Of a stretch of 64,000 nucleotides of DNA, positions 2,552 through 58,698 are shown one piece after another (position 1 is the stretch's first letter; each line of letters begins with the position of its first letter). The stretch is taken from assembly GCA_964535655.1 (NCBI GenBank), contig CAZHTP010000001.1, forward strand, positions 31,515-95,514, read 5' to 3'. The notes under the pieces were generated by a model. That model was not told the DNA's origin and did no database searches. It saw nothing but the letters and a program-made list of their open reading frames with translations. Both the position numbers and the translations under genes were made by a program. The DNA is from an uncultured Gammaproteobacteria bacterium (GTDB lineage: Bacteria > Patescibacteriota > Microgenomatia > JALYQM01).

Positions 2552-2989
2552 ATGCGACACCGTGTATCAGGAACTAAATTTAATGTAGATCGCGATCATC
2601 GTGCATCGTTACTTCGTAACTTGCTTACGTCGTATATTATTCACCAGGAGATCACTACAACTGAAGCTAAAGCTAAAGCTTTGAAGAGTTTATTTGATAA
2701 GCTTGTAACTCGTGCGAAGAAGAATGATTTGCAAGCTCGCAGAATGGTAGCTACGTATATTACGCAACCTGATGCTATGGTGAAATTGTTTGATGAATTA
2801 TTACCAAAGATGCAAAACAGAGTAAGTGGTTATTCTACTACCGTTAAGCATATTGGTGAGAGGGCCGGTGATAGTTCAAAAATGATGACAATTAAAATGC
2901 TTGTAGAAGAAGCAGCGGTTAAAGAAGAAAAGAAACCAGCAAAGACTACGGCAAAAAGAGTTAGAAAAACTAAAATGGAGGAGAAATAA
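2552..2989 (+). CDS. rplQ: 50S ribosomal protein L17
   Basis: 'MRHRVSGTKFNVDRDHRASLLRNLLTS' is a bL17 signature, and the gene follows rpoA as in the conserved order. Confidence 0.93.
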   Translation: MRHRVSGTKFNVDRDHRASLLRNLLTSYIIHQEITTTEAKAKALKSLFDKLVTRAKKNDLQARRMVATYITQPDAMVKLFDELLPKMQNRVSGYSTTVKHIGERAGDSSKMMTIKMLVEEAAVKEEKKPAKTTAKRVRKTKMEEK

Positions 2990-2994
2990 GGTAT

Positions 2995-3423
2995 ATGAAC
3001 AGCTCAACAGGAATTAGACCATCGCAGATTCAGAGAAAGTGGCATGTTGTTGATGTTGCTGATCAGACTTTAGGTCGAGTGTCATCTCAAATTGCTAAGT
3101 TACTTATTGGTAAACATAAGCCTTACTTTGTTAATCATCAGGATACTGGCGATTATGTAATTGTTATTAATGCTGCAAAAGTAAAAACTACTGGTAATAA
3201 ATTAGCTAATAAAATTTATCATCGACATAGTGGATTCCCCGGTGGTATGAAGACTCGTACTTTGGGTCAACAAATGGATAAGGATTCACGCATTGTTTTA
3301 GAAAAAGCTATTAAAGGTATGTTACCAAAGACTAAGTTGGGTGCACAAATGTTTTCGAAGTTGTTTGTATATTCGGATGATAAGCATCCTTACGAGGATA
3401 AAATTGCAAAAGGAGCTAAATAA
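2995..3423 (+). CDS. rplM: 50S ribosomal protein L13
   Basis: 'KWHVVDVADQTLGRVSSQIAKLLIGKHKPYF' is a uL13 signature. Confidence 0.93.
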   Translation: MNSSTGIRPSQIQRKWHVVDVADQTLGRVSSQIAKLLIGKHKPYFVNHQDTGDYVIVINAAKVKTTGNKLANKIYHRHSGFPGGMKTRTLGQQMDKDSRIVLEKAIKGMLPKTKLGAQMFSKLFVYSDDKHPYEDKIAKGAK

Positions 3424-3827
3424 TGTCAGAGAATACTGAAAGCATATACAAGGGTACTGGTCGACGCAAAACTTCGACCGCACGCGCTCATATTAAATTG
3501 GGTAAAGAGGGGATGACTGTTAATGATCGTCCAATCGAAGAGTATTTTTCAGGTGCAGTCAGTGCAACTGTATACACTCGTCCTTTTAAAGTCACCAATA
3601 CTTTAAGCCGATTTACTGGTTCAATTAGAGTTTCTGGTGGTGGACTTGAAGGTCAGCTAGAAGCTGTAGCGCACGCTTTATCGCGCGCTTTAATGAAATT
3701 TGACCCTACTCTTAAGGTTCAATTGCGTAAGCATAAGCTTTTGACTCGTGATCCTCGCATGAAGGAGAGTCTTAAGTACGGTCTTGCTCATGCAGCTCGT
3801 GCTAAGAAGAGTTCTCCAAAGCGTTAA
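3423..3827 (+). CDS. rpsI: 30S ribosomal protein S9
   Basis: 'GTGRRKTSTARAHIKLGKEGMTVNDRPIEEYF' and a C-terminal 'AARAKKSSPKR' match uS9. The gene overlaps the rplM stop. Confidence 0.93.
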   Translation: MSENTESIYKGTGRRKTSTARAHIKLGKEGMTVNDRPIEEYFSGAVSATVYTRPFKVTNTLSRFTGSIRVSGGGLEGQLEAVAHALSRALMKFDPTLKVQLRKHKLLTRDPRMKESLKYGLAHAARAKKSSPKR

Positions 3828-4038
3828 AACTAAATACCCTGCTTCTTGAGAGTTCGTTGCTCAGAAATTTGAAGTTTAAGTCATACTACTTTTTGCGGCT
3901 TCTTGCTTTCGAATTGTTTCTTAATCCTAGAATTTAACCAGGACGGATGCAAATTTCTTGCGCTACGAATCTCTCAATTCGCAACTCTTAACTTGGAAAT
4001 AAATATTACTTCGGATTAGTATTGATATAATAACCTAT

Positions 4039-4860
4039 ATGCCTGAACTTCCTGAAGTTGAAACTATTCGTCGTGGTTTGGAGTTACTTGTTGTTGGTCA
4101 GCAGATCAATTCGGTTGAAGTGTTACTACCTAAAATGTTTATTGGCTCGGCTGAAGATATTGTAGGGGCTTCTCTTGTGTCTGCCGGAAGGAGGGGAAAA
4201 CTCCTTATTATTCGTACTTCAGGTACTTTCTCGGTTCTTATTCACCTTAAAATGACAGGTCAGTTGCTATTTGTTCGCGCAGGCGAGACTACTTCTTTAC
4301 CTGAAAAAAGTACTAAAGTGATTTTTACTTTTGAATCGGGTGACCGCCTGTTTTTTAATGATTTTCGCACGTTTGGATTTGTTCAACTGTTTGAACAGAC
4401 AAAGCTTGATGAACATCCTTTTATACGAAAAATAGGGATTGAGCCTTTAGAAAATTTTTTTACTCAATCTTCTTTTTATGCATTACTTTCAAAAAGCAAC
4501 AGATCTAATATTAAAGCTTTTTTACTTGACCAGACTAAAATTGCTGGATTAGGCAATATTTATGCTGATGAAGTCTTATTTGCTGCTAAAATTTTGCCTA
4601 CGCGCAGGGTTGATTCGCTTTCTTTTTCTGAGCGTGAACTGCTTTTTGAATCGATTCGGGCAGTACTGTCAAAAGGCATAGATTTACGCGGTTCTTCTCA
4701 CACCAGCTATGTTGACGTTTCTGGTGAACGTGGGGTATTTTTGAACCAGGCAACTGTTTATCAGCGAGCTGGTTTACCATGTCGAGATTGCGGCACTCTA
4801 ATTACTAAAATAAGGCTTGCCGGAAGAGGCACTCACTACTGCCCGAACTGTCAAAAATAG
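4039..4860 (+). CDS. fpg: formamidopyrimidine-DNA glycosylase (Fpg/Nei family)
   Basis: N-terminal 'MPELPEVETIRRGL' has the catalytic Pro2/Glu3. A C-terminal zinc finger 'CRDCGTLITKIRLAGRGTHYCPNCQ' is present. A -10-like 'tgatataat' lies just upstream. Confidence 0.85.
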   Translation: MPELPEVETIRRGLELLVVGQQINSVEVLLPKMFIGSAEDIVGASLVSAGRRGKLLIIRTSGTFSVLIHLKMTGQLLFVRAGETTSLPEKSTKVIFTFESGDRLFFNDFRTFGFVQLFEQTKLDEHPFIRKIGIEPLENFFTQSSFYALLSKSNRSNIKAFLLDQTKIAGLGNIYADEVLFAAKILPTRRVDSLSFSERELLFESIRAVLSKGIDLRGSSHTSYVDVSGERGVFLNQATVYQRAGLPCRDCGTLITKIRLAGRGTHYCPNCQK

Positions 4861-4865
4861 CCGTT

Positions 4866-7430
4866 TTAGAGCATCTCAGCGCCTGTGTGCGGGTTAATTA
4901 CGTGCATTTTCTTATCTGTGGTCTCAGTTGGAGGGAAGACGAAACCTACTCCAGATCCGTTATAGTTAATTCCGCAATGCAGGTTATCAATCCCGGTTGC
5001 GCCGGTTATGCACATTTTTACTCCTGGGGCATCAAATAGTCTTGTATTTACATTGTATTTGGCCGTTCTCTCTTGAACAGTAAATGAAATTTGAGCTGTC
5101 TTATCAATACCCTCATCGGAAATACGTGTCTGCCAGTCTAAGTCCATCTCGTCTGATGTTTTGATGGGCTTTGACCATTTTCCTGGTCCGCCAATTGGTC
5201 CTGAGCGAATGCTGTAGTATATCTGGACAAATTGGTGATTACCATCCCCTCTGGGTATTGATGAATACACAGTATAGACAACAAATGTAGCCGTGTTTCC
5301 GTTTACATCTGTAACTGTTGCGATTTTTGGTGAAGCGTTATTCGCCCAGGTTTCAAATTCAGTCTTTCGGGTTGTTATGCGTTTTGTGATTAGTTCTTCT
5401 GGACTCCATTGACCTAATGGTGAACGAGCCAAGAATACTAAGCTGTTGTCATCATTACTTCCTAATCGGCCGCCTACGAGAACATTCCCTTGATTATCTG
5501 TCTGTATGGTAAACGGTATCGTATTAACTAATCCCACTGTGCTTGCGGAGAATGGCACTTTTTCAGATTCAACAACTGTTTTTAACGTCCTTGAAACCTC
5601 ATCAAACGCTAGCTTACTGTACAAAACTCGAGGGCAGTTATCGTCATCACACCACAGGAGATGAATATTATCGTCATTATCGGAAGCAAAGCGTACTGCC
5701 CACTTTACTCTATTACCTAAAAATGCGTTTGCGGTGGTGTTTTCTTTAAATACACCATTTATAGAATTAAAATACTTATATACTCCTCCAACATTAGTAA
5801 AAGCTATTTTTTCACCATTTTTTCGGATAAAAACTGCGGGAGTACCATAAAATTCACCATCGGCTACTTTTACAATTGGAAGAAGTGGACCGTTGGGAAG
5901 TTCATTAGTGGCTATAAAGAAGCCTTTTTTGTTGTCAGGGTTTTTATATACTTCTACAGCTACAGCCAAATGACCCGCTCTTTCTGTTATAGTAGGCCAA
6001 TGCTGTGCAACACCTAACCGATGACCTACCGGTTGTCCATCTACAAAGAGCGCTCCCGCACGCTCGTTTCCTGCCCTTAGGTAGGCAGAGTGATTCCCTG
6101 CAGTAACAACGGAAGCGCCGATTGGTAGTACATCAGGATTCATGAAACGAGAATCCGCTGAAATTTCAGCATATCCACCTAACTTATCTATATAGTCGTC
6201 AGTGCTGAAAGGTCCATTGCCGGTAGAGGTTGTTCCTGACTTAGTTGATAAAGAAAAGTGCATTTGAGCCGGTAGGTCCTTCATCCATTTTAAGTCATCT
6301 GGAGAGTATATGCCTAATTTGTCACCAAAAGCACGCGAGAAATATAACTCTGCTGCTTCAGTGTCGAACCCAATTTCATTGGTAGGAGCATGAATAGATG
6401 CAATCTTTAAGAATGGAAGTTTTGCTGGATCAACGAGTACGGTTGATTCTGGATTTTCAAATTGCTGTTGCGTATATTTCGGCTCAATTGGTGGCTCATC
6501 ATAACAGACCTTACTTGATAACGTTGTTGCAGGAGGACTAATATTTTCTTCTGAACAGAGTAAATTAGCGGGAAAGGGAAGCGATGCTGTTGTTACTGCA
6601 ACATCAGGTGATGTAGCGCAGATTCCCTTAAATGTACCAATATCAGGAAAAAAAGGTAACGCTGCCGGTGGAATTTCTTGACACGAATAACCGGCACTGC
6701 AGAATGAAGTTGGATCCCCTGGATTGCAGTAGCGGGTATCGTTTGAGATAACTGACGGAATTTTTCGTGCTAGCTCGCGAAGCCCATTGGGGTATGGTAT
6801 TGCAAAATCTTTTCGATCTGAATCGTCAATTGGATTTGAATCGGTAGGTTTTTCCTCATCTACCTCGCAGAGTTCGCCATCGTCTACTATACCGTTTGCA
6901 ATTACAGTATCGCAGCCACTTGCCGAACTTGGAATGGATTCTCCGATAGATAAGGTCCTTTTGGTAGTTTTTAAATATCTAATTACGCCGGTTTCACTTA
7001 CCGTGAAAGATCCCTTACCTATTCCGTCTCTGCTAATACAATATGTCTTCCAACGGTCGGAAAACTGCGGGTCGTTGACTGTAGTGCTGGTAAACGCTCC
7101 GATTACATTATAATAGTTAAGAAAGATTTGTGAAAAAACATTTGTTTTAATCGATGCTTCAGAATCTATAGTTACCGAGTATCCTCCTTCGGAGAATGTA
7201 TGCGAGAATCCAACATCATTCTTGGTATCGACGTCACTGGTGTGATGAGTAGTAAAGTGTGGCAGAGGAAATTGTCCGCCAAAATTGTAAAAAGCTGGGC
7301 ATGTTTGTGCACTTGCGGACGAAATGGGAGCTACTACCAGAGTCGAGAAAACGAGTACAGAACCGATAGCTCCGTACATAAATTTAGTGCTTTTTCTAAA
7401 TCGCCTATTGAACATGTACCCTCTTTTCAT
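4866..7430 (-). CDS. large secreted protein of unknown function (signal peptide, Cys-containing, possible BNR-like segments)
   Basis: The 854-aa ORF starts with a basic stretch plus hydrophobic core '...KFMYGAIGSVLVFSTLVVAPISSASAQ', which is a signal peptide. No catalytic motif was recognised. Confidence 0.6.
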   Translation of the reverse strand: MKRGYMFNRRFRKSTKFMYGAIGSVLVFSTLVVAPISSASAQTCPAFYNFGGQFPLPHFTTHHTSDVDTKNDVGFSHTFSEGGYSVTIDSEASIKTNVFSQIFLNYYNVIGAFTSTTVNDPQFSDRWKTYCISRDGIGKGSFTVSETGVIRYLKTTKRTLSIGESIPSSASGCDTVIANGIVDDGELCEVDEEKPTDSNPIDDSDRKDFAIPYPNGLRELARKIPSVISNDTRYCNPGDPTSFCSAGYSCQEIPPAALPFFPDIGTFKGICATSPDVAVTTASLPFPANLLCSEENISPPATTLSSKVCYDEPPIEPKYTQQQFENPESTVLVDPAKLPFLKIASIHAPTNEIGFDTEAAELYFSRAFGDKLGIYSPDDLKWMKDLPAQMHFSLSTKSGTTSTGNGPFSTDDYIDKLGGYAEISADSRFMNPDVLPIGASVVTAGNHSAYLRAGNERAGALFVDGQPVGHRLGVAQHWPTITERAGHLAVAVEVYKNPDNKKGFFIATNELPNGPLLPIVKVADGEFYGTPAVFIRKNGEKIAFTNVGGVYKYFNSINGVFKENTTANAFLGNRVKWAVRFASDNDDNIHLLWCDDDNCPRVLYSKLAFDEVSRTLKTVVESEKVPFSASTVGLVNTIPFTIQTDNQGNVLVGGRLGSNDDNSLVFLARSPLGQWSPEELITKRITTRKTEFETWANNASPKIATVTDVNGNTATFVVYTVYSSIPRGDGNHQFVQIYYSIRSGPIGGPGKWSKPIKTSDEMDLDWQTRISDEGIDKTAQISFTVQERTAKYNVNTRLFDAPGVKMCITGATGIDNLHCGINYNGSGVGFVFPPTETTDKKMHVINPHTGAEML

Positions 7431-39685: not shown

Positions 39686-41125
39686 ATGGCATCGGGGATT
39701 AGTGTTCCAAACTATATCATTTACATTCTAAAAGCGCTTTCAGAGGCAGGATTTGAAGGCTATATTGTGGGAGGTCCGGTTAGGGATATCCTAGTTGGCC
39801 GCGAGCCTAATGACTGGGATGTTACCACTAATGCAACTCCTGATGAGATTCAAAAAATCTTTCCCGAAAACTTTTATGATAATACGTTTGGTACGGTTGG
39901 TGTGGTACTTCGGGTAAAAGAGAATCAAGTGCTGTCGGAAAAAGATGATAGCGTTGATCCGATGGTTGTTCATGTAACTACGTTTCGCAGTGATGGGGAG
40001 TATTCTGATTTTCGTCGACCGGATTCAGTGGAGTGGGGCAAATCTATCGAAGATGATCTGCAACGACGCGACTTTACGATTAACGCTGTGGCTTTACGAA
40101 TTGAACAGGATATTTATTCTCAACTTCCATTACTTTGGGAAGAAACGTTCTCTAAACTATTTCCTGGTGATTTTGTTCTTATTGATCCGTATGGTGGTTT
40201 AGTCGATCTACAAAAAAAATTAATTCGTGCGGTAGGGAGTCCTGTTGAACGATTCCAGGAAGATGCGTTGCGCATGCTACGGGCGGTTCGATTTTCCTGT
40301 CAGTTAGGCTTTGAAATTGAAGGGGAAACTAAAAATGCCATCAGTACAAAATGTGAGAATTTAACTCATATTTCGGGCGAACGAATTCGCGATGAATTTT
40401 TTAAGATTTTATCTTCGGATCGTCCGTATGAAGGAGTTCAATTGCTAGATCAGCTAGGATTGCTGCAGTTTATTTTTCCTGAATTAGTTGCGGGTCGGGG
40501 AATGGATCAACGAGGGCATCATATTTACGATATTTTCGAACATAGTCTACATGCTCTCAAGTTTTGCCCTTCACCAGATCCGATTGTCCGGCTCGCCGCT
40601 CTTTTACATGATATTGGAAAAGTGCCTACGCATGAGGTTCGTGATGGAATAAACACGTTTTATAACCATGATATTGTTGGTGGAAAAATGGTGCGTGAAA
40701 TTGCGTATCGCTTGCATTTATCTAAAAAAGACCGGGAAAAATTATATACGCTAGTTCGATTCCATATGTTTAGTGTGGATACTATTCAAACTGATGCTGC
40801 AATTCGTCGATTTATAGTAAAAGTTGGTGCTGAAAATATTAATGATATGGTGGATTTGCGGATCGGTGATAGGCTAGGGAGTGGGACAAAAGATCCAGAA
40901 GGATGGAGACTTAAAGAGTTTAAAAAGCGCATTGAAACCTTGTTAATGCCAACATTTACAGTGAAAGATTTAGCCATTGATGGCCGTGATGTAATGCGAA
41001 TATTAAATATTTTGCCGGGTCCAAAGGTTGGCGAAATCTTGAATGCTTTGTTTGACGAAGTACTTGATGACCCTGAGAAGAATACTACGACATACTTAGA
41101 GAAAAGAGCTCTCTCTTTTATCTGA
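39686..41125 (+). CDS. cca: CCA-adding tRNA nucleotidyltransferase (class II, with HD domain)
   Basis: 'GYIVGGPVRDILVGREPNDWDVTT' is the NTase head. 'DALRMLRAVRFSCQLGFEIE' is present. HD motif 'HSLHALK...LLHDIGK'. Confidence 0.85.
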   Translation: MASGISVPNYIIYILKALSEAGFEGYIVGGPVRDILVGREPNDWDVTTNATPDEIQKIFPENFYDNTFGTVGVVLRVKENQVLSEKDDSVDPMVVHVTTFRSDGEYSDFRRPDSVEWGKSIEDDLQRRDFTINAVALRIEQDIYSQLPLLWEETFSKLFPGDFVLIDPYGGLVDLQKKLIRAVGSPVERFQEDALRMLRAVRFSCQLGFEIEGETKNAISTKCENLTHISGERIRDEFFKILSSDRPYEGVQLLDQLGLLQFIFPELVAGRGMDQRGHHIYDIFEHSLHALKFCPSPDPIVRLAALLHDIGKVPTHEVRDGINTFYNHDIVGGKMVREIAYRLHLSKKDREKLYTLVRFHMFSVDTIQTDAAIRRFIVKVGAENINDMVDLRIGDRLGSGTKDPEGWRLKEFKKRIETLLMPTFTVKDLAIDGRDVMRILNILPGPKVGEILNALFDEVLDDPEKNTTTYLEKRALSFI

Positions 41126-42896
41126 GTAATTTTTGCATGATTTCATTTACACCTGATATTACTTGTGGGTTTGACAATAAATCTAGATAATCTTGAAGTT
41201 GTTTTCGGTCAATTAACCCTGAATATACTTTTGGCCTTCTGATAAGATTAAGCAAGAACTGGACTTCGGCTTTAATTCTTTCCCACTCAACTTGAAGTGG
41301 AGTCATGGCAATAGTAGGCTTGTTGGTACCTAAAATTCTTCTATGTGCACCGCTTCGCATCAGTTCCCCAAATTGAGGGTCATTTAATGTTCTAATTCGC
41401 TGACTTTTATCGACCTGGAGAATGTCCATTAAGTACGCGATGTAATGATCGTTGAATAAGCGAGTTATCAGTGGCTCGTGGTCTCCGTTTTGGAATAGTT
41501 TACGGACATAATATCCTTCATGGAAGAATTCTTTATTGTATTTTGTGTTTAGGTGGTCCTTAACAGTTAACACTTGTACCTCTATTGATTTTCCATCAAT
41601 TATTAAATCAAATTGTATGACTTTGCGCTTGGAATTCGTAGCGCGGTTATGTGTATTCTCTGTATAACTGAAGAATATAGGTTCTCCTTCTTGTGGATCA
41701 GCCAAAAATCCCTCTTCGAATATGTTTTGTGTGTACCCGTGCTTGGAGTATGTAAATGAGTTATTTGACTTTCTTATACTGCTGACTAATTTGCTCATGA
41801 GGCTTGGAATGTCTGATTCATCTCTCACGATAAAACGTAATCCATTACTATCATCCGAAATTGCGCCGTTTTTGATTCCTCCTTTGGCGATGGCCCGAGG
41901 CATTTCTTTGTATCTACTGGTAACTTCCACCTGGATAATTTTTCCTTGAAAATTAACTTCACGGTAGGGCATTGCATGGCGCATTACAATGTGTCCTGGT
42001 TCTTGCGGTAGTGGCCCAGAGTCAGTCCAGTCAATGCATTCCCCTGAATGTAGGCTGTGCAGTGCATACACGTCTCTGTCGTGCAACTGGTCAGCTTTTG
42101 AATGGGTGTTTGGTCTGTGCCAAAATTCGGTGGCGTTTAGGATACCGTATAGCTCGTCCATGATTCCGTTTTGGTTTTCTGATGCGACAATTTCTCCAAT
42201 CCCGTGTAGTGTTGTGACAAATTTTGTTTGAGCTTCACTGCGCGCTTTATATGTAAGATCTTGATCAAAAGCAATTCGCAATATTTGTCGAATGCCTCGA
42301 GATGCTTTTACTTCTTGCTGCCACTCGAGCGCTGCATGCAGATCACTGATTATGTCAATTGAGTTGTTTACATGAGTTAGGGCCTTCAATTGATTTTTTC
42401 TTGGAGCGCCGCTGGTTCTTATGTAGTCTGTAAATCTTACTTTTATTCCCTCGATTATGAGTAGTAACCTGTTCCTTTCTTGTTCTGCTAATTCTTCGGC
42501 GTGTTGTGCTGCCACTTTTTGATACGTATCCGTATGAGCGCGGGAGGTAGATTGGGGTAACTTAAATCTTTCTATTAAGAAGTTAGCAACTCTTGCTTCT
42601 TGGGCGTCGATTTCTGATTTATCTGTAGTTTTAAGTGCTCTTTCAATTTCTTGTAATCCTATTGGTGATTCAGCATCGCCGGATGCTATATATCTTACGA
42701 TCTGCAGTAAGTCTTTTGCTGGTTCTTGTTCTGAATCTGGTGCTTCTTCTTGGAGTTGTCTATGCGTGTGGTCTGCTGTCTGCCTGCGTTGTGCTTCAAG
42801 TGCTTGAAAGGCGCCGTTATTGCCAATGAAGTTCCAGATATTAACGTCTGGATTAACTTGTTTTGGTAAAGATAATTTTTCAGTCATATATATCAC
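41118..42896 (-). CDS. protein with C-terminal RelA/SpoT-like nucleotidyltransferase (SYNTH-like) domain and a ~330-aa N-terminal region of unknown function
   Basis: The C-terminal half aligns by eye with synthetase motifs of the Rel in this window. 'RFIVRDESDIPSL' matches 'RIILQDESIENCY'. 'SKHGYTQNIF' matches 'KANGYRSLH'. 'SIEVQVLTVKDHLNTKYNKE' matches 'VMEVQIRTKIMHEQAEYG'. 'QGKIIQVEVTSRYKEM' matches 'EGRAKHMYSLWKKL'. The N-terminal half is unrecognised. Start is GTG at 42896 or ATG at 42887. Confidence 0.5.
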   Translation of the reverse strand: MIYMTEKLSLPKQVNPDVNIWNFIGNNGAFQALEAQRRQTADHTHRQLQEEAPDSEQEPAKDLLQIVRYIASGDAESPIGLQEIERALKTTDKSEIDAQEARVANFLIERFKLPQSTSRAHTDTYQKVAAQHAEELAEQERNRLLLIIEGIKVRFTDYIRTSGAPRKNQLKALTHVNNSIDIISDLHAALEWQQEVKASRGIRQILRIAFDQDLTYKARSEAQTKFVTTLHGIGEIVASENQNGIMDELYGILNATEFWHRPNTHSKADQLHDRDVYALHSLHSGECIDWTDSGPLPQEPGHIVMRHAMPYREVNFQGKIIQVEVTSRYKEMPRAIAKGGIKNGAISDDSNGLRFIVRDESDIPSLMSKLVSSIRKSNNSFTYSKHGYTQNIFEEGFLADPQEGEPIFFSYTENTHNRATNSKRKVIQFDLIIDGKSIEVQVLTVKDHLNTKYNKEFFHEGYYVRKLFQNGDHEPLITRLFNDHYIAYLMDILQVDKSQRIRTLNDPQFGELMRSGAHRRILGTNKPTIAMTPLQVEWERIKAEVQFLLNLIRRPKVYSGLIDRKQLQDYLDLLSNPQVISGVNEIMQKLLR

Positions 42897-42910
42897 TAAC
42901 CATTAACTGA

Positions 42911-42940
42911 AAGACCCCCTCTTTTGGAGGGGGTCTTTTT
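42911..42940. promoter_or_regulatory. perfect GC-rich hairpin flanked by A- and T-runs, in the shared upstream region of two divergent genes
   Basis: 'aagaccccctc-tttt-ggagggggtcttttt' forms a 9-10 bp G/C stem with a T-tract on the + strand. It lies ~20 nt upstream of the start of the minus-strand gene. Confidence 0.45.
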
Positions 42941-43259
42941 AAAATTTTTAATTTAAATGGCTTTCGATTACCCCCTCAACTTATTCGTGTACAAGAGGCC
43001 ACGAATAATGAACTCATTATTAAATGAGAGGTGTGCGTAATTGGAAAAACGTGTGCTTTTATTCATATAACAGACTATTTTTAACTTAATGCTATTGACT
43101 TGTCAAGTCTTAATTCGTTGGCGAGAAAGGTGTTAGCAGGTTTATAACTATTACTTAAATTAATACTTGGCAATAATTTAAACTTGATTTATAATTAAAG
43201 TTATAGGATATTGTACTAAATATTTCATTTTTGTCAAATCAATACTATAATCGTTTCTT

Positions 43260-45695
43260 ATGCTTACCGAGACTGGTGCTATCACTGATCGACCGAGTGG
43301 ATCGCTTACTGCAATTTTAAGGGGAACGTATTCTCGAGCAAAAGATATTCTTCAATATCAAAATACGCGGTTTAATAACGCAATCGAGCTTATAGGGCTA
43401 GATTATGAAGCGTTCAAAACTCGAAATAGATTGCGGTTTTTAGGTGATTACTTGCAAGCTGAAGATTATCCTCAACTAGCTGAAAAATATCGAATAGCTC
43501 CTGAATATGAATATATTCGTGTACTTCAGGAACGGGTGATGTACTACTACAAAGACCCTGATCATGTAAGTTTAATTTTGCGAGCAGCAGAATTTGGTGA
43601 AAATGAGAAGCGAAGAAATGAATCTAGTACCGGTAACGTAAAGAAGCGAGAATCGACTGGAAGAGATGCGTATGAACACCCGGTTGAAGTTGCAACCGTG
43701 GCGATGGATCACTTGTATGAGGAATTTGGTGTCTTACTTTCTCCGGATGTAATTGTGGCTATTCTTTTACACGATTCAATGGAGGATGACAATGTATCGT
43801 ACGAGAGCATTTGTAGTAATTTTGGAGTGCGGGTTGCAGATATTGTTTTTCGCATGACAAAAATTAAAGGTGATCAATTTGAAGGAATGGATCCGTTTGA
43901 GGCTGAGGCTCTTACGGTGGAACGATTGCTTAAATGTATGCAGCATGACCCGCATGGAGAGATGCCTCCTGACTTGGTTGTACTCCTTATAAAGTTTTTT
44001 GATCGAGAGGTTAATTCGCGAACGTTTAAAGAGATGAAGGATAAGAGAGATGCTTCAGGAAAAATAGTTGAGACAGCAGCCGATCGGCAAAGAAGAAAAG
44101 GGGAGGAGACTCTTCATATCTATTATACCCTAGCTGATTACTTCAGAATGTGGAAGTTACGAGATCAAATGGGTGACCGGTCTTTTGAATGTGTTGATCC
44201 GGAGGGGTACCGAAATGCTAAGCGTCTACAAGATTCAAATTCAGCTGATGTTTTGGCTATTGGAGAGAACATTGAAAAAATAATTGATCGGTATTCTGCA
44301 CGTGTACCATATGTTCGTGCTTATCAGGATCGGCATTTGCGTCGTATCCGTCGTGCTGGTGTACTTGATCATTTTGTACCAAAAGTTGCCGATATTCGGA
44401 CTCCTAGTGCTTATGAAATACATCAGCGAATTTTTGAGGAAGGAATGACTGCTGATGAGGCATTGCGTCCAACTATTTACATTGATGCACAGAATCACAA
44501 CCAAAGAGGTAAATTATTTGAGACGTTGTTACGATTCAATCCTTATTCAGGACAAGTAAATTATGAGACAGCTCAAGAAGATGCTGTTGTTGTAGCTAAT
44601 CAGGATCAGCTTACCATTCGTAACTTTAACTTAACACCAGACCAACGTGTTACTATCGTTTTACGTAATGCAGAAACAAGCTGGGTAACCAATATGCCTC
44701 TCGCTCTCAGAGTACAATTTCCTCCGACTGCCGACAGCGTTTTAGCGGAACGAATTACCTATTCTCATTTTTCAAGCCACTTTACGCCGAGAATTGGTGA
44801 GGGAGTTGTTGATAGAATTGATGTCTTTTTAGATGAAATACGTAAAAAAGATTTGACGTACGTATATGTCGTAAATGGATATAAGAAGGATCATTTAAAT
44901 TTTGCGGAACGTGTACTACTTAAAGAAGGCGCAACAGTGCTCGATTATTTATGTCGAAAATATAGTTTAGAAGAAATAGAATCTTTCTCAGAAATCTATA
45001 TTTTTGATCCTTTGACTGGTAAGAAAAATCTTATTAATGATCGATTAGGTGATGTCTTACCACGAGGTTGTTATGTTCTGCTATCTAAAAATAAGCGTAA
45101 AGTATTTCATTACAAACCGAATCCTCGGGACTTGTTTTGTCAAAAAACTGATCCAGCATTGGATTTTATACTGCGAAGGATGTCGGAGCATGTTGCCATT
45201 GATGAAAATTATCTCCTTCATGTTGAGGATTCACTTATTGAAAGAGGCAAGGGTATCTTTTCAGATGCTTTATTTGACGAAGTAGAAGGGCCTGATGTTC
45301 AAAACCCTGAATTTTATGTCGATGAGCTGTTTGATTTCTTTTCAAATGTCTATGGTAGTGAATTTAAGGTAAAGGTATTTAATTTAGCGCTTTCCTATGA
45401 TACCAAAGAGAGAGAGCATTTCTTAAGTGAAGTTATGACATTTATTAATCAACGCAGTATCAACCTGGCGTTATATCCTGGGAGCTCAGGATGTTACACC
45501 GCAGAGCTGAGTGACTTTAAATTGCTCGCACTTCGTGAATATGTTGAAAGCGTTGGTGGAGTTATGCCGTTTGAAAAGACGGTAAGTGCAAATGGTTCTT
45601 TGCGGGTAATTTTACGTGGATACTTAGCTATCAGAGAAGCCTCAGATCTTCCAGATATTGTCCAAGAATTATCTAAGTACATCAAAACTATATAA
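43260..45695 (+). CDS. protein with RelA/SpoT-type HD (ppGpp-hydrolase-like) domain and long uncharacterised C-terminal region
   Basis: 'YEHPVEVATVAMDHLYEEFGVLLSPDVIVAILLHDSMEDD' (HD motif) and 'ETLHIYYTLADYFRMWKLRDQMGDRSF' align with Rel 'HPAAVALIVAEMGLDDASIIAALLHDVVEDT' and 'ETLEIYAPLASRLGMGQIRGELEDLAF'. No synthetase motifs follow. About 450 aa of unknown sequence lie C-terminal. Confidence 0.6.
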   Translation: MLTETGAITDRPSGSLTAILRGTYSRAKDILQYQNTRFNNAIELIGLDYEAFKTRNRLRFLGDYLQAEDYPQLAEKYRIAPEYEYIRVLQERVMYYYKDPDHVSLILRAAEFGENEKRRNESSTGNVKKRESTGRDAYEHPVEVATVAMDHLYEEFGVLLSPDVIVAILLHDSMEDDNVSYESICSNFGVRVADIVFRMTKIKGDQFEGMDPFEAEALTVERLLKCMQHDPHGEMPPDLVVLLIKFFDREVNSRTFKEMKDKRDASGKIVETAADRQRRKGEETLHIYYTLADYFRMWKLRDQMGDRSFECVDPEGYRNAKRLQDSNSADVLAIGENIEKIIDRYSARVPYVRAYQDRHLRRIRRAGVLDHFVPKVADIRTPSAYEIHQRIFEEGMTADEALRPTIYIDAQNHNQRGKLFETLLRFNPYSGQVNYETAQEDAVVVANQDQLTIRNFNLTPDQRVTIVLRNAETSWVTNMPLALRVQFPPTADSVLAERITYSHFSSHFTPRIGEGVVDRIDVFLDEIRKKDLTYVYVVNGYKKDHLNFAERVLLKEGATVLDYLCRKYSLEEIESFSEIYIFDPLTGKKNLINDRLGDVLPRGCYVLLSKNKRKVFHYKPNPRDLFCQKTDPALDFILRRMSEHVAIDENYLLHVEDSLIERGKGIFSDALFDEVEGPDVQNPEFYVDELFDFFSNVYGSEFKVKVFNLALSYDTKEREHFLSEVMTFINQRSINLALYPGSSGCYTAELSDFKLLALREYVESVGGVMPFEKTVSANGSLRVILRGYLAIREASDLPDIVQELSKYIKTI

Positions 45696-48246: not shown

Positions 48247-49374
48247 TTATTCTTGGTTTATATATCCTTCTTGGACCGCGGGTACGAAAGCCCTAAAGAG
48301 GAAACTACTATCACTTACTTTATCTCCTTCAAATACCCACACTGGCTGAATGTTCTCTTGAAAAGTTGGCGGCTCATAATAAGCCAAGTAAATACTTCGA
48401 ATATTATACTCATCTCCTGGATTTGAAGGGCTCAAAATTGTCGCTTTACCATTGTTTAGCATCTCCCAAGCTGTTTTGGTGGAACGGGTTGGGTACACTC
48501 CAAGAACTACTGGACGGGTATTAATTGGCCAGAAGGTTATTTCTGCATTAACCAATCTATCTTGAAAATCTTTTGAATTATCACTTCTGGTAATCCCGGT
48601 ATAGGTAAAATTAATTAAACTTTTAGTGGTATACGGGCTAATTATTGGTATTCCGTTAATAGGTAAGCGAGGAATATCTACTTTTGTTAAGTTCGCTTGA
48701 AGTTGGGAAGCGACTGGAGCAGATGTCTGGAGAGTAGGATCAAGGTAAATATAACTTCCGTGTGGTGCAGTCTCAGTTTCTAGTATGTTTTTCTGTTGGC
48801 GTAGTTCAGGTCTGGCTTGGCCTAAATATGAAACTGCGTTTCGTTTGGCTTTATCTATGGTAGGTGTTGCGCCTCGTTCCAGTGATACATATGCCGCCAA
48901 ATTGTCATAACTATAGTGAAGATTGTAATAGGTAAAATCTACTTCGAGTTTTTTATTTGGATCGGTTGGATCTTGAAACAGGAAAGTCCGGTCCGTGTTC
49001 TTTACCGGATTTACATTAGGGAACCCGAGTATTCCAGCGAGTTTTACAGAACTGACTTGGTAATCTAATTCCGGGCTTTTTTTAACTACTTCGTATACTG
49101 TAGCGCTACCTGTTCCTTCTGGAATTGTTCCGTCAATTGTTTCGAGGATAAATTTCTTTCCAGCGCTGGTTGTTGTGCCGGCTGGCAATGCTGGTGCAGA
49201 AAGTACGCCGTATGTTGGGTTTATGTAGGGAGTAGGCGTAGGCGTAGGGCGAACACAACATAGGGTGTATGCTGCTCTAAAGGTATATCTGAGTGCAATA
49301 AATGCGATTATTGCTATCCCAAGTATAATCGCGCCTTTTTTAGTAGCGTCAGCGGTAGAGGTAAGAGAAGCCAT
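48247..49374 (-). CDS. membrane-anchored/secreted hypothetical protein
   Basis: An N-terminal TM/signal anchor 'AIILGIAIIAFIALRY' is followed by a Thr/Pro-rich segment. No catalytic motif. Confidence 0.45.
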   Translation of the reverse strand: MASLTSTADATKKGAIILGIAIIAFIALRYTFRAAYTLCCVRPTPTPTPYINPTYGVLSAPALPAGTTTSAGKKFILETIDGTIPEGTGSATVYEVVKKSPELDYQVSSVKLAGILGFPNVNPVKNTDRTFLFQDPTDPNKKLEVDFTYYNLHYSYDNLAAYVSLERGATPTIDKAKRNAVSYLGQARPELRQQKNILETETAPHGSYIYLDPTLQTSAPVASQLQANLTKVDIPRLPINGIPIISPYTTKSLINFTYTGITRSDNSKDFQDRLVNAEITFWPINTRPVVLGVYPTRSTKTAWEMLNNGKATILSPSNPGDEYNIRSIYLAYYEPPTFQENIQPVWVFEGDKVSDSSFLFRAFVPAVQEGYINQE

Positions 49375-51331: not shown

Positions 51332-51423
51332 ACAATAATACTATCACATTCTTTTTAAATTAGAAAGAGAAAAAGAGTCTTGTCAGGATGTCGTTTTTAT
51401 TGCATACTCAATTTTAATTAAAT

Positions 51424-51573
51424 ACATCAAGAGTGATAGGGAGAGTTCCGGCTCGTTAATCTATCCAGCAACCGATTCAATTAGAAAACGGTGCTCCATC
51501 CGGCCCGAAAGGGAAGATGCGGTCATGTACATGACAATTTAGCCTCGTCTTCCTAGTAGGGAGAGAGGTTTTT
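51424..51573 (+). promoter_or_regulatory. SAM-I (S-box) riboswitch with terminator/SD-sequestering hairpin upstream of metK
   Basis: 'AUCAAGAG..AGGGAG..GGC..UUAAUCUAUCCAGCAACC....CGGUGCUCCAUCCGGCCCGAAAGGGAAGAUG' matches the S-box conserved segments (AUCAAGAG, GCAACC, GGUGCU, GAAAG..GAUG). Hairpin 'cctcgtcttcc..gggagagagg' plus a T7 run lies immediately before the metK ATG. The promoter 'ttgtca-17-catact' is at ~51380-51408. Confidence 0.55.
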
Positions 51574-51575
51574 TT

Positions 51576-52691
51576 ATGGCTACAATAAGCCGTTCGTTTA
51601 CTTCTGAGAGTGTTTGTGCTGGGCACCCCGATAAAATATGTGATCAAATTAGCGATGCGATAGTTGATGCAGTGTTGCATGAAGATCCCTACGGTCGTGT
51701 AGCAATAGAAACATTAGTTACAACTAATAAGGTTATTTTGGCAGGCGAAGTAACTAGCCGTGCTGTTATCGATTATGCAAGAGTTGCGCGAGATCAAATT
51801 GAAAGATTAGGTTACACAGATGATAAATATGGTTTTTCTCATAAAGCATTAATAGATGTATATATTCATGAACAGTCATCCGAGATTGCAGTTGGTGTAG
51901 ATGATGCTGGAGCTGGTGATCAAGGGATGATGTTTGGCTATGCTTGCCGTGAAACAAATAATTTTATGCCGATGCCTATTGCTATTGCTCACGCACTCAC
52001 TGCGCGGATTGACGAAGTGCGCGAAGAGAAGCTATTACCATATCTTCGTCCTGATGGAAAAGCTCAAGTGACTGTTGGCTATGACAATGATGTACCTGTT
52101 GAAATTGTATCGGTTGTTTTAGCAGTTCCTCATGAAGAATCGGAAGAATTGGAAAAAGTGAAAGATGATCTTTACCGGCAGGTTGTTTTGCCTGTTCTTT
52201 CGGGATTTGAGCTATCCTATCCGCAATTTCATTTAATAGTTAATGGAACCGGTGTTTGGCATATTGGTGGGCCGGCGTCAGACACCGGAGTGACGGGACG
52301 AAAAATTGTAGTGGACACCTATGGAGGGTATGCTCGAGTAGGGGGTGGAGCCTTTAGTGGCAAAGATCCTACAAAAGTTGATCGCTCGGGTGCATATGCT
52401 GCTCGGTATCTGGCGAAGAATCTCGTTGCTCACCGTTTTGCGGATAAGGCGGAAGTCTCACTTGCGTATTTTATTGGAGCTAAAAAGCCGGTAATGCAGG
52501 AAGTAGAAACCTTTGGTACGGCTAAGAAATCTGATCAAGAGATTAAAGCCTTTGTATCTGAATTGTTGGATACTTCAGTTCAGGGGATTCTGGAAGGGCT
52601 GCAGTTGCGAAAACCATTGTACTTAGCTACTGCTACTTATGGTCACTTTGGACGCAAGGGCTTCCCGTGGGAGGAAATAGTTCAGAAATAA
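51576..52691 (+). CDS. metK: S-adenosylmethionine synthase
   Basis: 'FTSESVCAGHPDKICDQISDAIVDAVL' and 'GGGAFSGKDPTKVDRSGAYAARYLAKNLVA' are canonical MetK motifs. Confidence 0.93.
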   Translation: MATISRSFTSESVCAGHPDKICDQISDAIVDAVLHEDPYGRVAIETLVTTNKVILAGEVTSRAVIDYARVARDQIERLGYTDDKYGFSHKALIDVYIHEQSSEIAVGVDDAGAGDQGMMFGYACRETNNFMPMPIAIAHALTARIDEVREEKLLPYLRPDGKAQVTVGYDNDVPVEIVSVVLAVPHEESEELEKVKDDLYRQVVLPVLSGFELSYPQFHLIVNGTGVWHIGGPASDTGVTGRKIVVDTYGGYARVGGGAFSGKDPTKVDRSGAYAARYLAKNLVAHRFADKAEVSLAYFIGAKKPVMQEVETFGTAKKSDQEIKAFVSELLDTSVQGILEGLQLRKPLYLATATYGHFGRKGFPWEEIVQK

Positions 52692-57084: not shown

Positions 57085-58698
57085 ATGAAAAAACGTTACT
57101 ATATTGTAATAATTTCTTTGACTGCGGTGCTATCTCTTTCAATTGTCTTTTTTACCCAAAATTTTCGAGTATCATCTTTTCTGAGAAGTTTTGATACTTC
57201 GAGCGCACAATCTGCGCCTTGTACCAGTGCAACACTTAATGCCATTGGAGCGAGAAGTGGTGCCTCCTTTACCACGGAAGTCGGATGTATGCAGTCGGGA
57301 ACACAAATTTATCTGAATGACAGCCAGTATACTTTTTTTCAGGCTCCTTCTTCTCTTGCCTCTAAAGGCGTTGCCTACATTAAAACTCCTAATAGTGAAG
57401 TAATGAATTCTCCGTTGAATTGGAGTGTGAATATTACCACGCCTTCAGATGTTTATATTTTTTATCGTAAAATTCCAGGAATTTTGCCTCCTAATTGGAT
57501 TACGTCGTCGTATATAAAACAGACTCCAGAGTCATTTTCGGACTTAGCTCCTTTTTTGTTGCGCAAAAATAGTAACGGATTGATTGGTGTGTATGATGTG
57601 TATAAACTTCAGACTTTAAATAAAGTTGGAGTATTGGATTTGCATGATGCAATTCCATCTAACAATATTACAGCATATTCTATGTATATCGTTGGTGTTG
57701 TGCCAAATAACCCCAATAATACGACTAACCCTACGGCCTCCGTTACTCCGACGACAACTGCAAGGCCTACAAGTGCACCAACGACTCCAACTCATACAGA
57801 ACCGCCTGTTTCAGGTGACTTTCCTTGTGGTAAATATCCAAATGCTAATCCAGGGTGCATGCCAGTGTCGTTTCAATCATGGTTTGATAATGTTCCTGCT
57901 TCGGCCGAAACAATGAATGTTAACTATACACCACGTCTTGTACATCAGCACTATGAGTGCAATGTGCCTGCTGTTCGTGCTAATGGGCAATACTTAAAGC
58001 AAGGAATGAAGATAGTTTGCCAGTTTGTTAGATATAACAGTATTATTCCTTTTAACAGTGGCAATTCGTCGTGGTTTCGATCTCAGAATCAAGGTAGCAC
58101 GTATGAGCAATTTACAATGAATTTGGCTCCGTGTCAGGGTAATAAATACGAGGGAAAAGAATGTAAATCTGAAAATGTCCATACGGTTCGTGCTAGCGAT
58201 TTTTCGAGCGCTACTGAGATGCGCTATACTCCTAATACTAATTTTGCGGGAATGGGTGGACAACGTCACTTCTTGTCGTCTAACTGGCAAACTGGAATTG
58301 GATACCGAAGCTCTTCGGAATTTACTTCTCGTTATTGGATTGGTGAATGTGGTAATTATCAGCGAATGATTTTAAGCACAGTTGATAAATACATGCGAGG
58401 AAACGAACCAATAGCTACTGTAAGAGGTACGATTACACTTCCATTTGAATCTAATGGAGGTTGTGGGACACAATTTAAAACTTTTGTGTTCTTAGATCCA
58501 GCTCAGCATGTGACGGTTGCTGGAACTCAAACAGGCACTACTTTATTTGAATCGAATTCTCATGTTAAAACTAATTTAACCTGGGATACGACTAAAACTA
58601 CTAATGGACTGCATAGCTTGCTTTTTATCAATATGGAAGGTACTGGTAAGTATGTTTCGGCCTCAGGAGTAGCGGTCAAATATATAGTTCAAAATTAG
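57085..58698 (+). CDS. secreted hypothetical protein with Thr/Pro-rich linker
   Basis: Signal peptide 'IVIISLTAVLSLSIVFF'. Linker 'NPNNTTNPTASVTPTTTARPTSAPTTPTHTEPP'. A Cys-containing C-terminal domain. Confidence 0.55.
   Translation: MKKRYYIVIISLTAVLSLSIVFFTQNFRVSSFLRSFDTSSAQSAPCTSATLNAIGARSGASFTTEVGCMQSGTQIYLNDSQYTFFQAPSSLASKGVAYIKTPNSEVMNSPLNWSVNITTPSDVYIFYRKIPGILPPNWITSSYIKQTPESFSDLAPFLLRKNSNGLIGVYDVYKLQTLNKVGVLDLHDAIPSNNITAYSMYIVGVVPNNPNNTTNPTASVTPTTTARPTSAPTTPTHTEPPVSGDFPCGKYPNANPGCMPVSFQSWFDNVPASAETMNVNYTPRLVHQHYECNVPAVRANGQYLKQGMKIVCQFVRYNSIIPFNSGNSSWFRSQNQGSTYEQFTMNLAPCQGNKYEGKECKSENVHTVRASDFSSATEMRYTPNTNFAGMGGQRHFLSSNWQTGIGYRSSSEFTSRYWIGECGNYQRMILSTVDKYMRGNEPIATVRGTITLPFESNGGCGTQFKTFVFLDPAQHVTVAGTQTGTTLFESNSHVKTNLTWDTTKTTNGLHSLLFINMEGTGKYVSASGVAVKYIVQN

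Follow-up and report, generated by a model that had tools for sequence, protein, structure and literature searches.

RelA/SpoT homologs (RSHs) are central to bacterial stress signaling and, as toxic small alarmone synthetases (toxSAS), to toxin-antitoxin and anti-phage systems. The described toxSAS modules are organized as a conserved bicistronic, often overlapping, toxin-antitoxin operon (PMC7229694). Here we describe a locus related to these systems in a 64,000-nucleotide stretch of DNA (the window), positions 31,515 to 95,514 of the forward strand of contig CAZHTP010000001.1 (GenBank assembly GCA_964535655.1), which was deposited as an uncultured Gammaproteobacteria bacterium and belongs to the GTDB lineage Bacteria; Patescibacteriota; Microgenomatia; JALYQM01. 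Two head-to-head genes, separated by a 363-bp spacer, encode proteins of 592 and 811 amino acids (aa). Our preferred reading, which we consider probable to a modest degree, is that the first is an RSH-type pyrophosphokinase, gated by an attenuator, whose ATP site is intact and whose acceptor we leave unnamed, that the second is a product-removing HD-TGS hydrolase (replaced elsewhere by a Nudix hydrolase), and that the two act in stress or conflict.

The locus resembles several known systems in part. As in FaRel/ATfaRel, a stand-alone enzyme with the RSH-synthetase fold lies beside an RSH-type HD hydrolase able in principle to degrade its product, and the donor-site residues (R-x-K, a basic helix, D-x-x-G-x-R and E-x-Q) are equivalent to those of FaRel2. 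However, the genes described here are divergent and chromosomally fixed, their products are three to four times larger, the hydrolase derives from a long RSH and carries a TGS-like domain, unlike a small alarmone hydrolase (SAH) of ∼200 aa, the acceptor-loop tyrosine is not conserved, and both genes escape the Pfam RelA_SpoT profile. The 592-aa protein shares with CapRel the fusion of a synthetase core to additional, rapidly varying domains in one polypeptide, but these comprise an N-terminal helical region of ∼290 aa and a helical tail in place of a C-terminal pseudo-ZFD, and there is no prophage or defense-island context. Like the RelA/SpoT split of the Beta- and Gammaproteobacteria and the monofunctional long RSHs, the locus combines what looks like a hydrolase-only HD and TGS protein with a synthetase-only partner, near the ancestral rel gene. 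Unlike in that split, the 592-aa protein lacks a pseudo-HD domain, a TGS domain and C-terminal regulatory domains, the segment of the 811-aa protein at the synthetase position is unrecognizable, and the rates of change are far higher.

Both open reading frames (ORFs), and a canonical bifunctional Rel of 697 aa in the same window, had been delineated in an initial annotation made from the sequence alone, and their coordinates and domains are borne out (Table 1). Rel scores 651.8 bits against TIGR00691 (cutoff 499). The two proteins are, as that annotation proposed, extra and very diverged paralogs of the RelA/SpoT superfamily, one synthetase-like and the other an HD hydrolase, encoded by adjacent genes and each contained in a larger protein.

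The relationship of the 592-aa protein to RSH synthetases is apparent only at the level of its family. Searched alone, the protein gives no Pfam match at E ≤ 1, noise against NCBIfam, no phmmer match in the PDB and no BLASTP match to the Rel of the window, and a word-indexed search of 5.8 billion proteins returns only the protein itself. Its assignment as a synthetase is drawn from the family as a whole and from structure. An exhaustive HMMER scan of 1.84 billion cluster representatives recovered 14 relatives with 24–32% identity, and later searches brought the family to about 20 distant members (a word-indexed profile search with a trimmed alignment gave four). The family is rare. A single-sequence AlphaFold model was unusable (predicted local distance difference test, pLDDT, 34.7), and modeling with AlphaFold (AF2) on an alignment of 15 family sequences gave a pLDDT of 84.7 and a predicted template modeling score of 0.81. 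The resulting model has the five-stranded mixed-sheet pyrophosphokinase fold of Rel, small alarmone synthetases (SASs) and toxSAS enzymes, that is, a fold of the RelA/SpoT small-alarmone-synthetase type as predicted from the family alignment. Nearly all of the best 25 Foldseek matches in the PDB are Rel, RelP/SAS2, SpoT, RelSeq, RelA or CapRel, with probabilities of up to 1.00 and modest E-values of 0.012–0.4 (CapRel 0.083), and in the BFVD viral library a phage RelA/SpoT protein matches with a probability of 0.99.

Profile comparisons are consistent with the model. Using hhalign, residues 317–367 and 433–463 of the 592-aa family align to the Rel synthetase domain with P-values of 0.0014 and 0.0011, respectively, and the two halves are colinear, whereas the same queries give P-values of 0.27–0.71 against the Rel HD and C-terminal profiles used as controls. 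The hidden Markov model (HMM) of the family matches three different Rel chains in the PDB in register at R-x-K ... D-x-x-G-I-R. Two short family members reach Pfam RelA_SpoT weakly, of which P0049 covers profile positions 2–96 with an E-value of 0.0047. The initial annotation had aligned the C-terminal half with the Rel synthetase motifs; the Pfam threshold of PF04607 (RelA_SpoT) is never reached, this being the best value for any member, and the support comes instead from family-level hhalign comparisons and the fold.

Conservation was counted over 17 family members and is concentrated on the residues expected of a pyrophosphate donor site. In FaRel2 this site comprises R64, K66, K74, R77, D90, G93, R95, E145 and Q147 (PMC11782079), and R328 (conserved in 16/17), K330 (15/17), K338 (15/17), K342 (14/17, plus two Arg), D349 (17/17), G352 (14/17), R354 (Arg in 9/17, plus three Lys), E439 (17/17) and Q441 (14/17) of the 592-aa protein map onto them one-to-one, with roles taken from the same study. 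The protein thus presents the R-x-K, basic helix, D-x-x-G-x-R and E-x-Q elements together. H459 is retained in 12/17 and Y462 in all, and the invariant or near-invariant positions of the family include E221 in the N-terminal domain, R328, D349, E439 and Y462. As judged from this alignment, the ATP-Mg donor site is conserved under strong selection. Since this holds in a family otherwise only 20–30% identical, a pseudo-enzyme is unlikely, and the suggestion of the initial annotation that the protein might be a regulatory pseudo-enzyme gives way to that of an enzyme with an intact donor site in which only the acceptor loop is non-canonical. That suggestion had drawn on a change of the basic G-R-x-K pair to "GKII", which reflects a misalignment; the true motif is S327-R328-Y-K330, aligned to "GRAKH" of Rel.

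Of three motif pairings with Rel proposed earlier, "RFIVRDES" with "RIILQDES" and "IEVQVLT.." with "MEVQIRT.." are supported by profile–profile alignment. The third, which took "SKHGYTQNIF" for the G-loop, probably does not hold. This segment is most likely strand beta3, although one HMM alignment backs the original register. An insertion of ∼30 aa had been placed between the last two motifs; an insertion does exist in the long family members, but it measures ∼22 residues and lies between beta3 and the acceptor loop. The 592-aa protein differs from RelP and RelQ (SAS2 and SAS1) in this insertion, in the loop itself and in its large flanking domains.

The acceptor loop is remodeled. The loop before beta4 reads "ENTHNRATNS" in the 592-aa protein, and the elements N414-G-H416-N417..S421 conform to a motif N-G-H-N-x-x-[ST]-S that precedes this strand. 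The stacking tyrosine of the canonical N-G-Y-x-S-x-H loop is not conserved in either register, with the loop alignment itself uncertain (column 388, Tyr in 6/17; column 416, His in 8/17). Because the canonical tyrosine is missing from the loop, the acceptor cannot be named; a purine nucleotide and the 3′ end of an RNA are both possible. Judging from the conserved residues and the structural model, the protein is probably catalytically active.

Outside the core the 592-aa protein varies greatly. Its first ∼180 aa are hypervariable and hardly alignable, and comparison of the N-terminal ∼290 residues with HD domains and with known families found no relation; in particular, a degenerate HD domain in the N-terminal half is unsupported (P 0.3–0.9). 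A conserved h-x-x-h-L-G-x-x-G-h-F motif lies near the N-terminus (residues ∼18–32) within the hypervariable helical domain and, with the motifs at residues 193–225, spans window positions 42221–42845. The "LxG"-like part of this region, together with work on LXG/EAS-like polymorphic toxins (PMC12691689), raised the idea of a secreted polymorphic toxin. There is no Pfam LXG match, and the idea is disfavored because the 592-aa protein varies at its N-terminus and conserves its enzymatic part, whereas polymorphic toxins do the opposite. A dTMP-kinase-like match of the N-terminus (NCBIfam, E 0.046) was taken as noise.

The 811-aa protein is more readily placed. Residues 128–292 match Pfam HD_4 above the gathering score (E 3.4e-9), residues 139–329 match TIGR00691 (E 5.5e-21), and BLASTP aligns the protein to the Rel of the window (E 3e-15). 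The HD domain recognized in the initial annotation is thereby confirmed, as is its observation that synthetase motifs are lacking; there is no Pfam RelA_SpoT match. Across 10 orthologs with only 20–30% identity overall, the metal-binding H, HD and D residues and one Arg never vary, and the ED pair is present in nine, so that the ligands needed for hydrolysis, on which the earlier reading depended, are intact. Matches in the PDB are stronger to the HD fragments of long RSHs (E 1.7e-10 to 3e-5) than to SAH/Mesh1 proteins (E 1.7e-4 to 0.46), and the protein is not of the single-domain SAH/Mesh1 type of ∼180–200 aa; the ortholog of L006 is shorter, at 331 aa (loci and proteins of relatives are designated by L and P numbers). 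A scan of genome contigs for further relatives of the 811-aa protein found none.

Similarity to long RSHs extends well beyond the HD domain. The profile of nine orthologs aligns to the long-Rel profile (hhalign, Prob 99.9, E 1e-36) colinearly over residues 88–668 and Rel 6–508. The TGS-position segment of this profile, compared alone with full-length Rel, aligns to Rel 411–491 (P 0.0016), and the C-terminal half alone aligns to Rel 410–508 (P 0.0032); Pfam TGS gives no match. In these alignments the post-TGS motif "PSrdWL..T..Ar" pairs with "KPNPRDLF.QKTDPALDF". The TGS-like segment is the most conserved part of the protein, 82% identical to P0003, an ortholog with 68% identity overall. A TGS-like domain in the 811-aa protein is moderately supported by these comparisons. 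The ∼450 aa after the HD domain had been described as unrecognizable, which does not apply to residues ∼548–668, aligned to the TGS and post-TGS regions of Rel (P 0.0016–0.003).

Between the HD and TGS-like domains lie ∼190 aa, placed where Rel carries its synthetase domain and equal to it in length. Using hhalign, similarity of this middle region to the Rel synthetase (P 0.22–0.45) or to the 592-aa core (P 0.57) was not detected, and a reading of it as a degenerate synthetase or a relative of the 592-aa core is unsupported by these comparisons; a pseudo-synthetase identity is a positional inference only. In a forced full-length alignment to Rel the catalytic Glu and the lysine of R-x-K are replaced. 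The region is 69% identical to P0003 and is therefore under constraint. The C-terminal ∼140 aa give a weak, colinear and nonsignificant alignment to the ACT/RRM region of Rel (Rel 609–662; P 0.19–0.39). Where the initial annotation saw a hydrolase of the SAH type with unknown additions, we read the protein as a degenerate long RSH, with an HD hydrolase domain, a possible pseudo-synthetase middle, a TGS-like domain and a C-terminal tail.

The two genes occur together in related genomes. From gene contexts recovered for most family members, with the gene for the CCA-adding enzyme (CCA enzyme) as an anchor in a scan of contigs, we find the pair head-to-head in seven of nine syntenic loci (the window, L003, L006, L008, L011, L016 and L018), which bears out the co-location envisaged in the initial annotation. 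The recurring order is GltX, an unknown gene, Peptidase_S11, AspRS, the HD partner (-) divergent from the 592 homolog (+), the CCA enzyme, RecJ, Rel and GlgA. Each protein in the partner slot is homologous to the 811-aa protein or to its HD domain, with lengths of 751 aa in L003, 623 aa in L008, 770 aa in L011, 822 aa in L016 and, besides the short protein of L006, 633 aa in L018, which has a 618-aa paralog in tandem (the two lying within 2865–6783). A lone HD protein in L013 (8900–10777) is an ortholog of the 618-aa type with 31% identity, and with the tandem paralogs of L018 it indicates at least two HD-partner lineages. More distant family members in L005 and L009/10 have other gene contexts. 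In L014, a distant groundwater relative, a co-directional 77-aa ORF (6704–6937) replaces both the HD partner and the leader of the synthetase-like gene. An extra 420-aa gene lies between the CCA gene and the synthetase-like gene of L011 (8409–9671) and has no Pfam or PADLOC match; its thymidylate-kinase-like P-loop match (PHROG, E 1e-4) was taken as noise.

A second kind of hydrolase is found beside some 592 homologs. In L003 (9685–10155) and L004 (1843–2313) a gene for a 156-aa Nudix protein overlaps the stop codon of the synthetase-like gene, and P0048 carries fused phosphoribosyltransferase-like and Nudix domains (residues ∼430–737; Nudix E 4.7e-7); P0050 also has a phosphoribosyltransferase-like extension. 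The domains and the conserved adjacency together suggest that a product-removing hydrolase, whether HD or Nudix, is a recurrent companion of the 592 homologs and not an obligatory one. The 592 and HD genes themselves are not obligate partners, because L012 and L014 have no HD gene and L013 no synthetase gene.

This arrangement recalls toxSAS modules with SAH antitoxins, the comparison drawn in the initial annotation. On this account the pair would be a toxin-antitoxin or abortive-infection module, in which the 592-aa protein arrests growth as a toxin, through synthesis of (pp)pApp or pyrophosphorylation of the CCA end of tRNA, the 811-aa protein is a type IV antitoxin that degrades the product, as in FaRel/ATfaRel, and the variable helical domains are a sensor of the trigger as in CapRel. 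The synthetase fold with its intact donor site and the HD hydrolase adjoining it in seven genomes agree with such a module, SAH enzymes are able to neutralize toxSAS products (PMC11782079; PMC7229694), CapRel is among the structural matches, and the extreme sequence turnover and cassette-like replacement of the coding sequence (CDS) described below are typical of conflict genes. However, a bicistronic operon is the defining architecture of toxSAS systems (PMC7229694), and the pair is divergent in all seven paired genomes, with separate promoter-like sites. The genes are vertically inherited in a fixed housekeeping slot between AspRS and CCA-RecJ-Rel, with no mobile-element or defense context and no GC anomaly (GC content of the pair 0.38–0.40, as in the remaining window), and in L012 and L014 the synthetase gene persists although its HD partner is missing. 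Neither PADLOC nor PHROGs matches the 592-aa family. The toxin would, moreover, carry its own attenuator and not be co-transcribed with its antitoxin. We therefore regard a toxSAS-type module as unlikely; of the earlier comparison the recurrent co-location stands, and the comparison itself is one of analogy. Without the operon, the locus falls outside the toxSAS toxin-antitoxin class as defined.

The 3′ ends of the 592-aa gene and the convergent CCA gene overlap by 8 bp (41118–41125), and the homologs in L002, L006, L016 and L018 overlap the CCA gene tail-to-tail in the same way. Such an overlap could point to RNA-end modification tied to the CCA enzyme, with the 592-aa protein pyrophosphorylating tRNA 3′ ends that the HD partner and the CCA enzyme, through its own HD domain, would then repair. 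The convergent, overlapping arrangement is present in every syntenic genome, the acceptor loop is non-canonical, and toxSAS enzymes of the same fold modify CCA ends and recognize tRNA through N-terminal extensions (PMC11782079). Nevertheless, lineage-wide synteny explains the adjacency, the family member in L014 abuts RecJ, a Nudix gene intervenes in L003, and the distant members in L005 and L009 have no CCA gene nearby. RNA binding is without positive support, and we consider a link of this kind very unlikely.

The pair evolves much faster than its surroundings. Between the window and L011, L012, L016 and L006, amino-acid identity is 86–90% for Rel, 88–89% for AspRS, 72–77% for the CCA enzyme, 73–78% for RecJ and 66–71% for an uncharacterized 375-aa neighbor, but 23–28% for the 592-aa homologs and about 24% for the 811-aa homolog, a divergence about ten times faster than that of the housekeeping neighbors. 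The contrast is sharpest with the closest relative, L002/L001 from the same sample. Nucleotide identity is 77% in the CCA gene, 88% in the leader of the 592-aa gene and 71% in the 811-aa gene, whereas the 592 CDS has no detectable nucleotide similarity to its counterpart (L002, 186–1802), the two proteins being 27% identical. Since the flanks and leader are conserved and the CDS is without nucleotide similarity, the CDS behaves as a replaced or hypervariable cassette, through either diversifying selection or allelic replacement. The hypervariability of both genes, above all of the 592 CDS, suggests a role in conflict or stress over a housekeeping one.

These rates bear on a further alternative, that a long RSH was duplicated and its functions divided, the 592-aa protein keeping synthesis (RelA-like) and the 811-aa protein hydrolysis and the TGS domain (SpoT-like), so as to form a second, housekeeping stringent-response pair that tunes (p)ppGpp beside Rel. 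The vertical inheritance of the genes two genes from rel and the colinearity of the 811-aa protein with Rel through the TGS domain agree with such a division, and an attenuator would make synthesis depend on the state of translation, as the stringent response does. Set against it, apart from the divergence just described, are an acceptor loop without the conserved Tyr for guanine stacking, the lack of any HD trace in the N-terminal half of the 592-aa protein, a complete bifunctional Rel already present and the loss of either gene in some relatives. We judge this alternative improbable.

Upstream of the 592-aa gene lies a structured leader (42899–43106, -), which comprises a promoter-like site, a near-leaderless upstream ORF (uORF) of 32 codons, an A-rich spacer and an intrinsic terminator, and is conserved in nine genomes. 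This leader, like the cassette-like hypervariability, goes beyond what the initial annotation described. A GC-rich hairpin followed by a U-run occurs 7–58 nt upstream of the start codon in the window, L002, L003/4, L006/7, L008, L011, L012, L016/17 and L018, and the hairpin is absent from the distant family members. Since nothing upstream on this strand needs terminating and several genomes have no room for a later promoter, the 592-aa gene must be expressed by read-through. The last codons of the uORF contain a copy (box A) of the 3′ arm of the terminator (GAGGGGGU), situated about 40–45 nt upstream of the 5′ arm of the hairpin (box B). We folded the nascent RNA (before the 3′ arm) and the full leader with ViennaRNA for nine leaders: boxes A and B pair as an anti-terminator in 9/9 nascent folds, and the B:C terminator is the minimum-free-energy structure of the full leader in 9/9. 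All nine syntenic leaders have a uORF, of 23–34 codons (the start in L018 is unclear), and eight end in Arg-Gly-stop. As read from sequence and folding, the leader thus brings together a short uORF and, overlapping its end, an anti-terminator whose formation excludes that of the intrinsic terminator, as expected of a ribosome-mediated attenuator.

The uORF peptides share a loose ...R..h.[WY]...K.RG-stop pattern and are Asn-rich (11.3% versus a background of 4.4%, P 2e-6), with no run of a single codon. In having a short uORF followed by mutually exclusive anti-terminator and terminator helices, and a region-1-like segment within the uORF, the leader resembles the trp, his and pheA attenuators; in the size of the uORF and in a C-terminal motif conserved beside its stop codon, it resembles the TnaC and SpeFL arrest peptides. 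It differs from both in the absence of a regulatory codon run (there being Asn enrichment only), in the location of the stop codon inside the anti-terminator strand, in the RSH-like enzyme it would control and in having no Rfam family. By analogy with the trp type we infer a ribosome-dependent attenuator, with a putative promoter, a presumed translation of the uORF and a predicted direction of switching; an arrest-peptide mechanism working in the opposite direction may be an alternative. A search of the intergenic region with Rfam found nothing near any gathering score and no family that matches the leader. A leader-pattern probe of metagenome contigs gave 120 matches, none with a 592-family member, and these were taken as chance matches to a pattern that is too generic.

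The spacing "AAAAAT + 10 nt + ATG" upstream of the uORF recurs in L002, L006 and L012. A second promoter-like site on the same strand (43237–43210, 11/12) faces the site assigned to the 811-aa gene, with predicted transcription starts nearly coinciding near position 43202; judged by position, the two facing sites could exclude each other.

Taken together, we propose that the locus encodes two enzymes of RelA/SpoT descent, one that makes a product and one that breaks it down. The 592-aa protein would be an extremely diverged nucleotide pyrophosphokinase that uses ATP-Mg as the pyrophosphate donor via the conserved site and moves pyrophosphate onto an acceptor that the altered loop does not reveal. 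The 811-aa protein, a descendant of a long RSH with an Mn-type HD pyrophosphohydrolase and a TGS-like domain, would remove the product of the 592-aa enzyme, and in some relatives an adjacent or fused Nudix hydrolase would serve in the same product-removing role. By analogy with trp-type attenuators, we predict that a ribosome at the uORF stop codon masks box A, the anti-terminator copy, so that the terminator forms (the off state), and that a ribosome stalled earlier in the uORF frees box A to pair with the 5′ arm of the terminator (the on state). The 592-aa enzyme would then be made when translation is disturbed, because early ribosome stalling frees the anti-terminator. A bolder version, which we put forward only tentatively, is that the 592 family is an unrecognized RSH branch whose remodeled acceptor site yields a new signal or a macromolecule modification rather than (p)ppGpp or (p)ppApp, with a ribosome-sensing uORF attenuator, a product erased by HD-TGS or Nudix hydrolases and a CDS exchanged as a cassette.

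A number of observations count against the proposed enzyme pair and its regulation. The structural model of the 592-aa protein was built on a shallow alignment (15 sequences), hhalign probabilities of its core against Rel are just 14–20%, and no family profile match attains a curated threshold, the best being that of P0049 with 17.6 bits (cutoff 27). R354, expected to stack on adenine, is Arg or Lys in just 12 of the 17 members, the acceptor is not deducible from the loop, and the activity is a prediction only. In the 811-aa protein, the region between the HD and TGS-like domains and the C-terminal tail are unassigned. The HD partner is missing in L012, on a contig of 1.57 Mb, and in the more distant L014, and the synthetase gene in L013; moreover, the seven paired genomes come from a single lineage in which synteny is conserved, which means that they are not independent cases and that the adjacency may partly be inherited. 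In the leader, the promoter-like sites are consensus matches only and are not enriched in the region (10 found versus 15 expected), and the stems are almost invariant, the sole parallel change being that of boxes A and C in L012, so that covariation cannot support them.

Some of these observations could be taken to mean that the 592-aa protein is non-enzymatic or unrelated to RSHs, its resemblance an artefact of modeling or alignment and its pairing with an HD gene coincidental synteny. The hhalign probabilities below 20%, Foldseek E-values of just 0.01–0.1 and the absence of any significant single-sequence or Pfam match speak for an artefact. Yet in a family only 20–30% identical, no residues of the core other than the RSH catalytic ones and Y462 are invariant or nearly so, Nudix and HD hydrolases are found with its members repeatedly, and four lines of evidence are concordant. 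We consider an artefact highly improbable.

Table 1. Positions in the window of the two genes, their protein regions, the leader elements and neighboring features
Feature	Position	Strand	Remarks
592-aa ORF	41118–42896	-	Probable start ATG 42887; database version begins at Met4, 42887
592-aa protein, N-terminal all-helical region, residues 1–299	42000–42896	-	QxEVK (residues 193–197), KxRxEA (residues 217–222, E221 invariant)
592-aa protein, synthetase-like catalytic core, residues 300–470	41487–41999	-	hhalign, PDB profile matches, conservation counts
592-aa protein, C-terminal helical tail, residues 471–592	41121–41486	-	Poorly conserved; low confidence past residue ∼520
Intrinsic-terminator hairpin	42909–42939	-	Box B GACCCCCUC, loop, box C GAGGGGGUC, U-rich tail; 21 nt 5′ of ATG
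uORF, 32 codons	42968–43066	-	Translation MNKSTRFSNYAHLSFNNEFIIRGLLYTNKLRG-stop
Box A	42971–42977	-	Last uORF codons AGG-GGG-UAA; copy of terminator 3′ arm; anti-terminator by pairing with box B
Region 1 "CCUCUC"	about 43026–43031	-	Within uORF; can pair with box A, like region 1 of trp-type attenuators
Promoter-like TTGACA-18-AAAAAT	43077–43106	-	Consensus match only, 10/12; 10 nt upstream of uORF ATG
Promoter-like TTGGCA-17-TATAAT, 811-aa gene	43167–43195	+	Consensus match only, 11/12; conserved in L001
811-aa ORF	43260–45695	+	Degenerate long-RSH paralog with active-looking HD hydrolase
811-aa protein, HD (HD_4) pyrophosphohydrolase domain, residues 129–330	43644–44249	+	R130, H140, H171-D172, E175-D176, D248, N252
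811-aa protein, middle region, residues 331–520	44250–44819	+	Position and length of Rel synthetase domain
811-aa protein, TGS-like domain and post-TGS helix, residues ∼521–668	44820–45263	+	hhalign to Rel
811-aa protein, C-terminal ∼140 aa	45264–45692	+	48–55% identical to P0003
Canonical bifunctional Rel, 697 aa	35484–37577	-	HD_4, RelA_SpoT, TGS and ACT_4 domains
SAM-I/IV riboswitch	51419–51551	+	Rfam 43.8 bits, gathering score 41.1

Elsewhere in the window, the SAM-I/IV riboswitch lies directly 5′ of an S-adenosylmethionine synthetase gene (51576–52691). Large ORFs without a Pfam match at E ≤ 1e-5 are found at 4866–7430 (-, 854 aa), 57085–58698 (+, 537 aa) and 48247–49374 (-, 375 aa), the last of which encodes the 375-aa neighbor compared above and is syntenic and conserved in related genomes.

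We rate the 592 family as a new, profile-invisible branch of RSH synthetases with a new architecture, partner type and regulation. The catalogued diversity of alarmone enzymes is incomplete, because HMM-based surveys miss a branch that is invisible to Pfam and NCBIfam and came to light only through exhaustive searching and structure prediction. With an intact donor site and a different acceptor loop, the family is a specific place to look for a new product or a new target, and the 811-aa protein shows a possible route by which a long RSH decays into a hydrolase-plus-TGS protein. The uORF-terminator leader would be a case of an RSH-type enzyme placed directly under an attenuator that senses the ribosome. 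The sharp contrast between a replaced CDS and its conserved flanks and leader makes cassette-like diversification amenable to study in uncultivated bacteria with small genomes and, if the new-signal or conflict reading is true, these bacteria would possess a chromosomally fixed conflict system.

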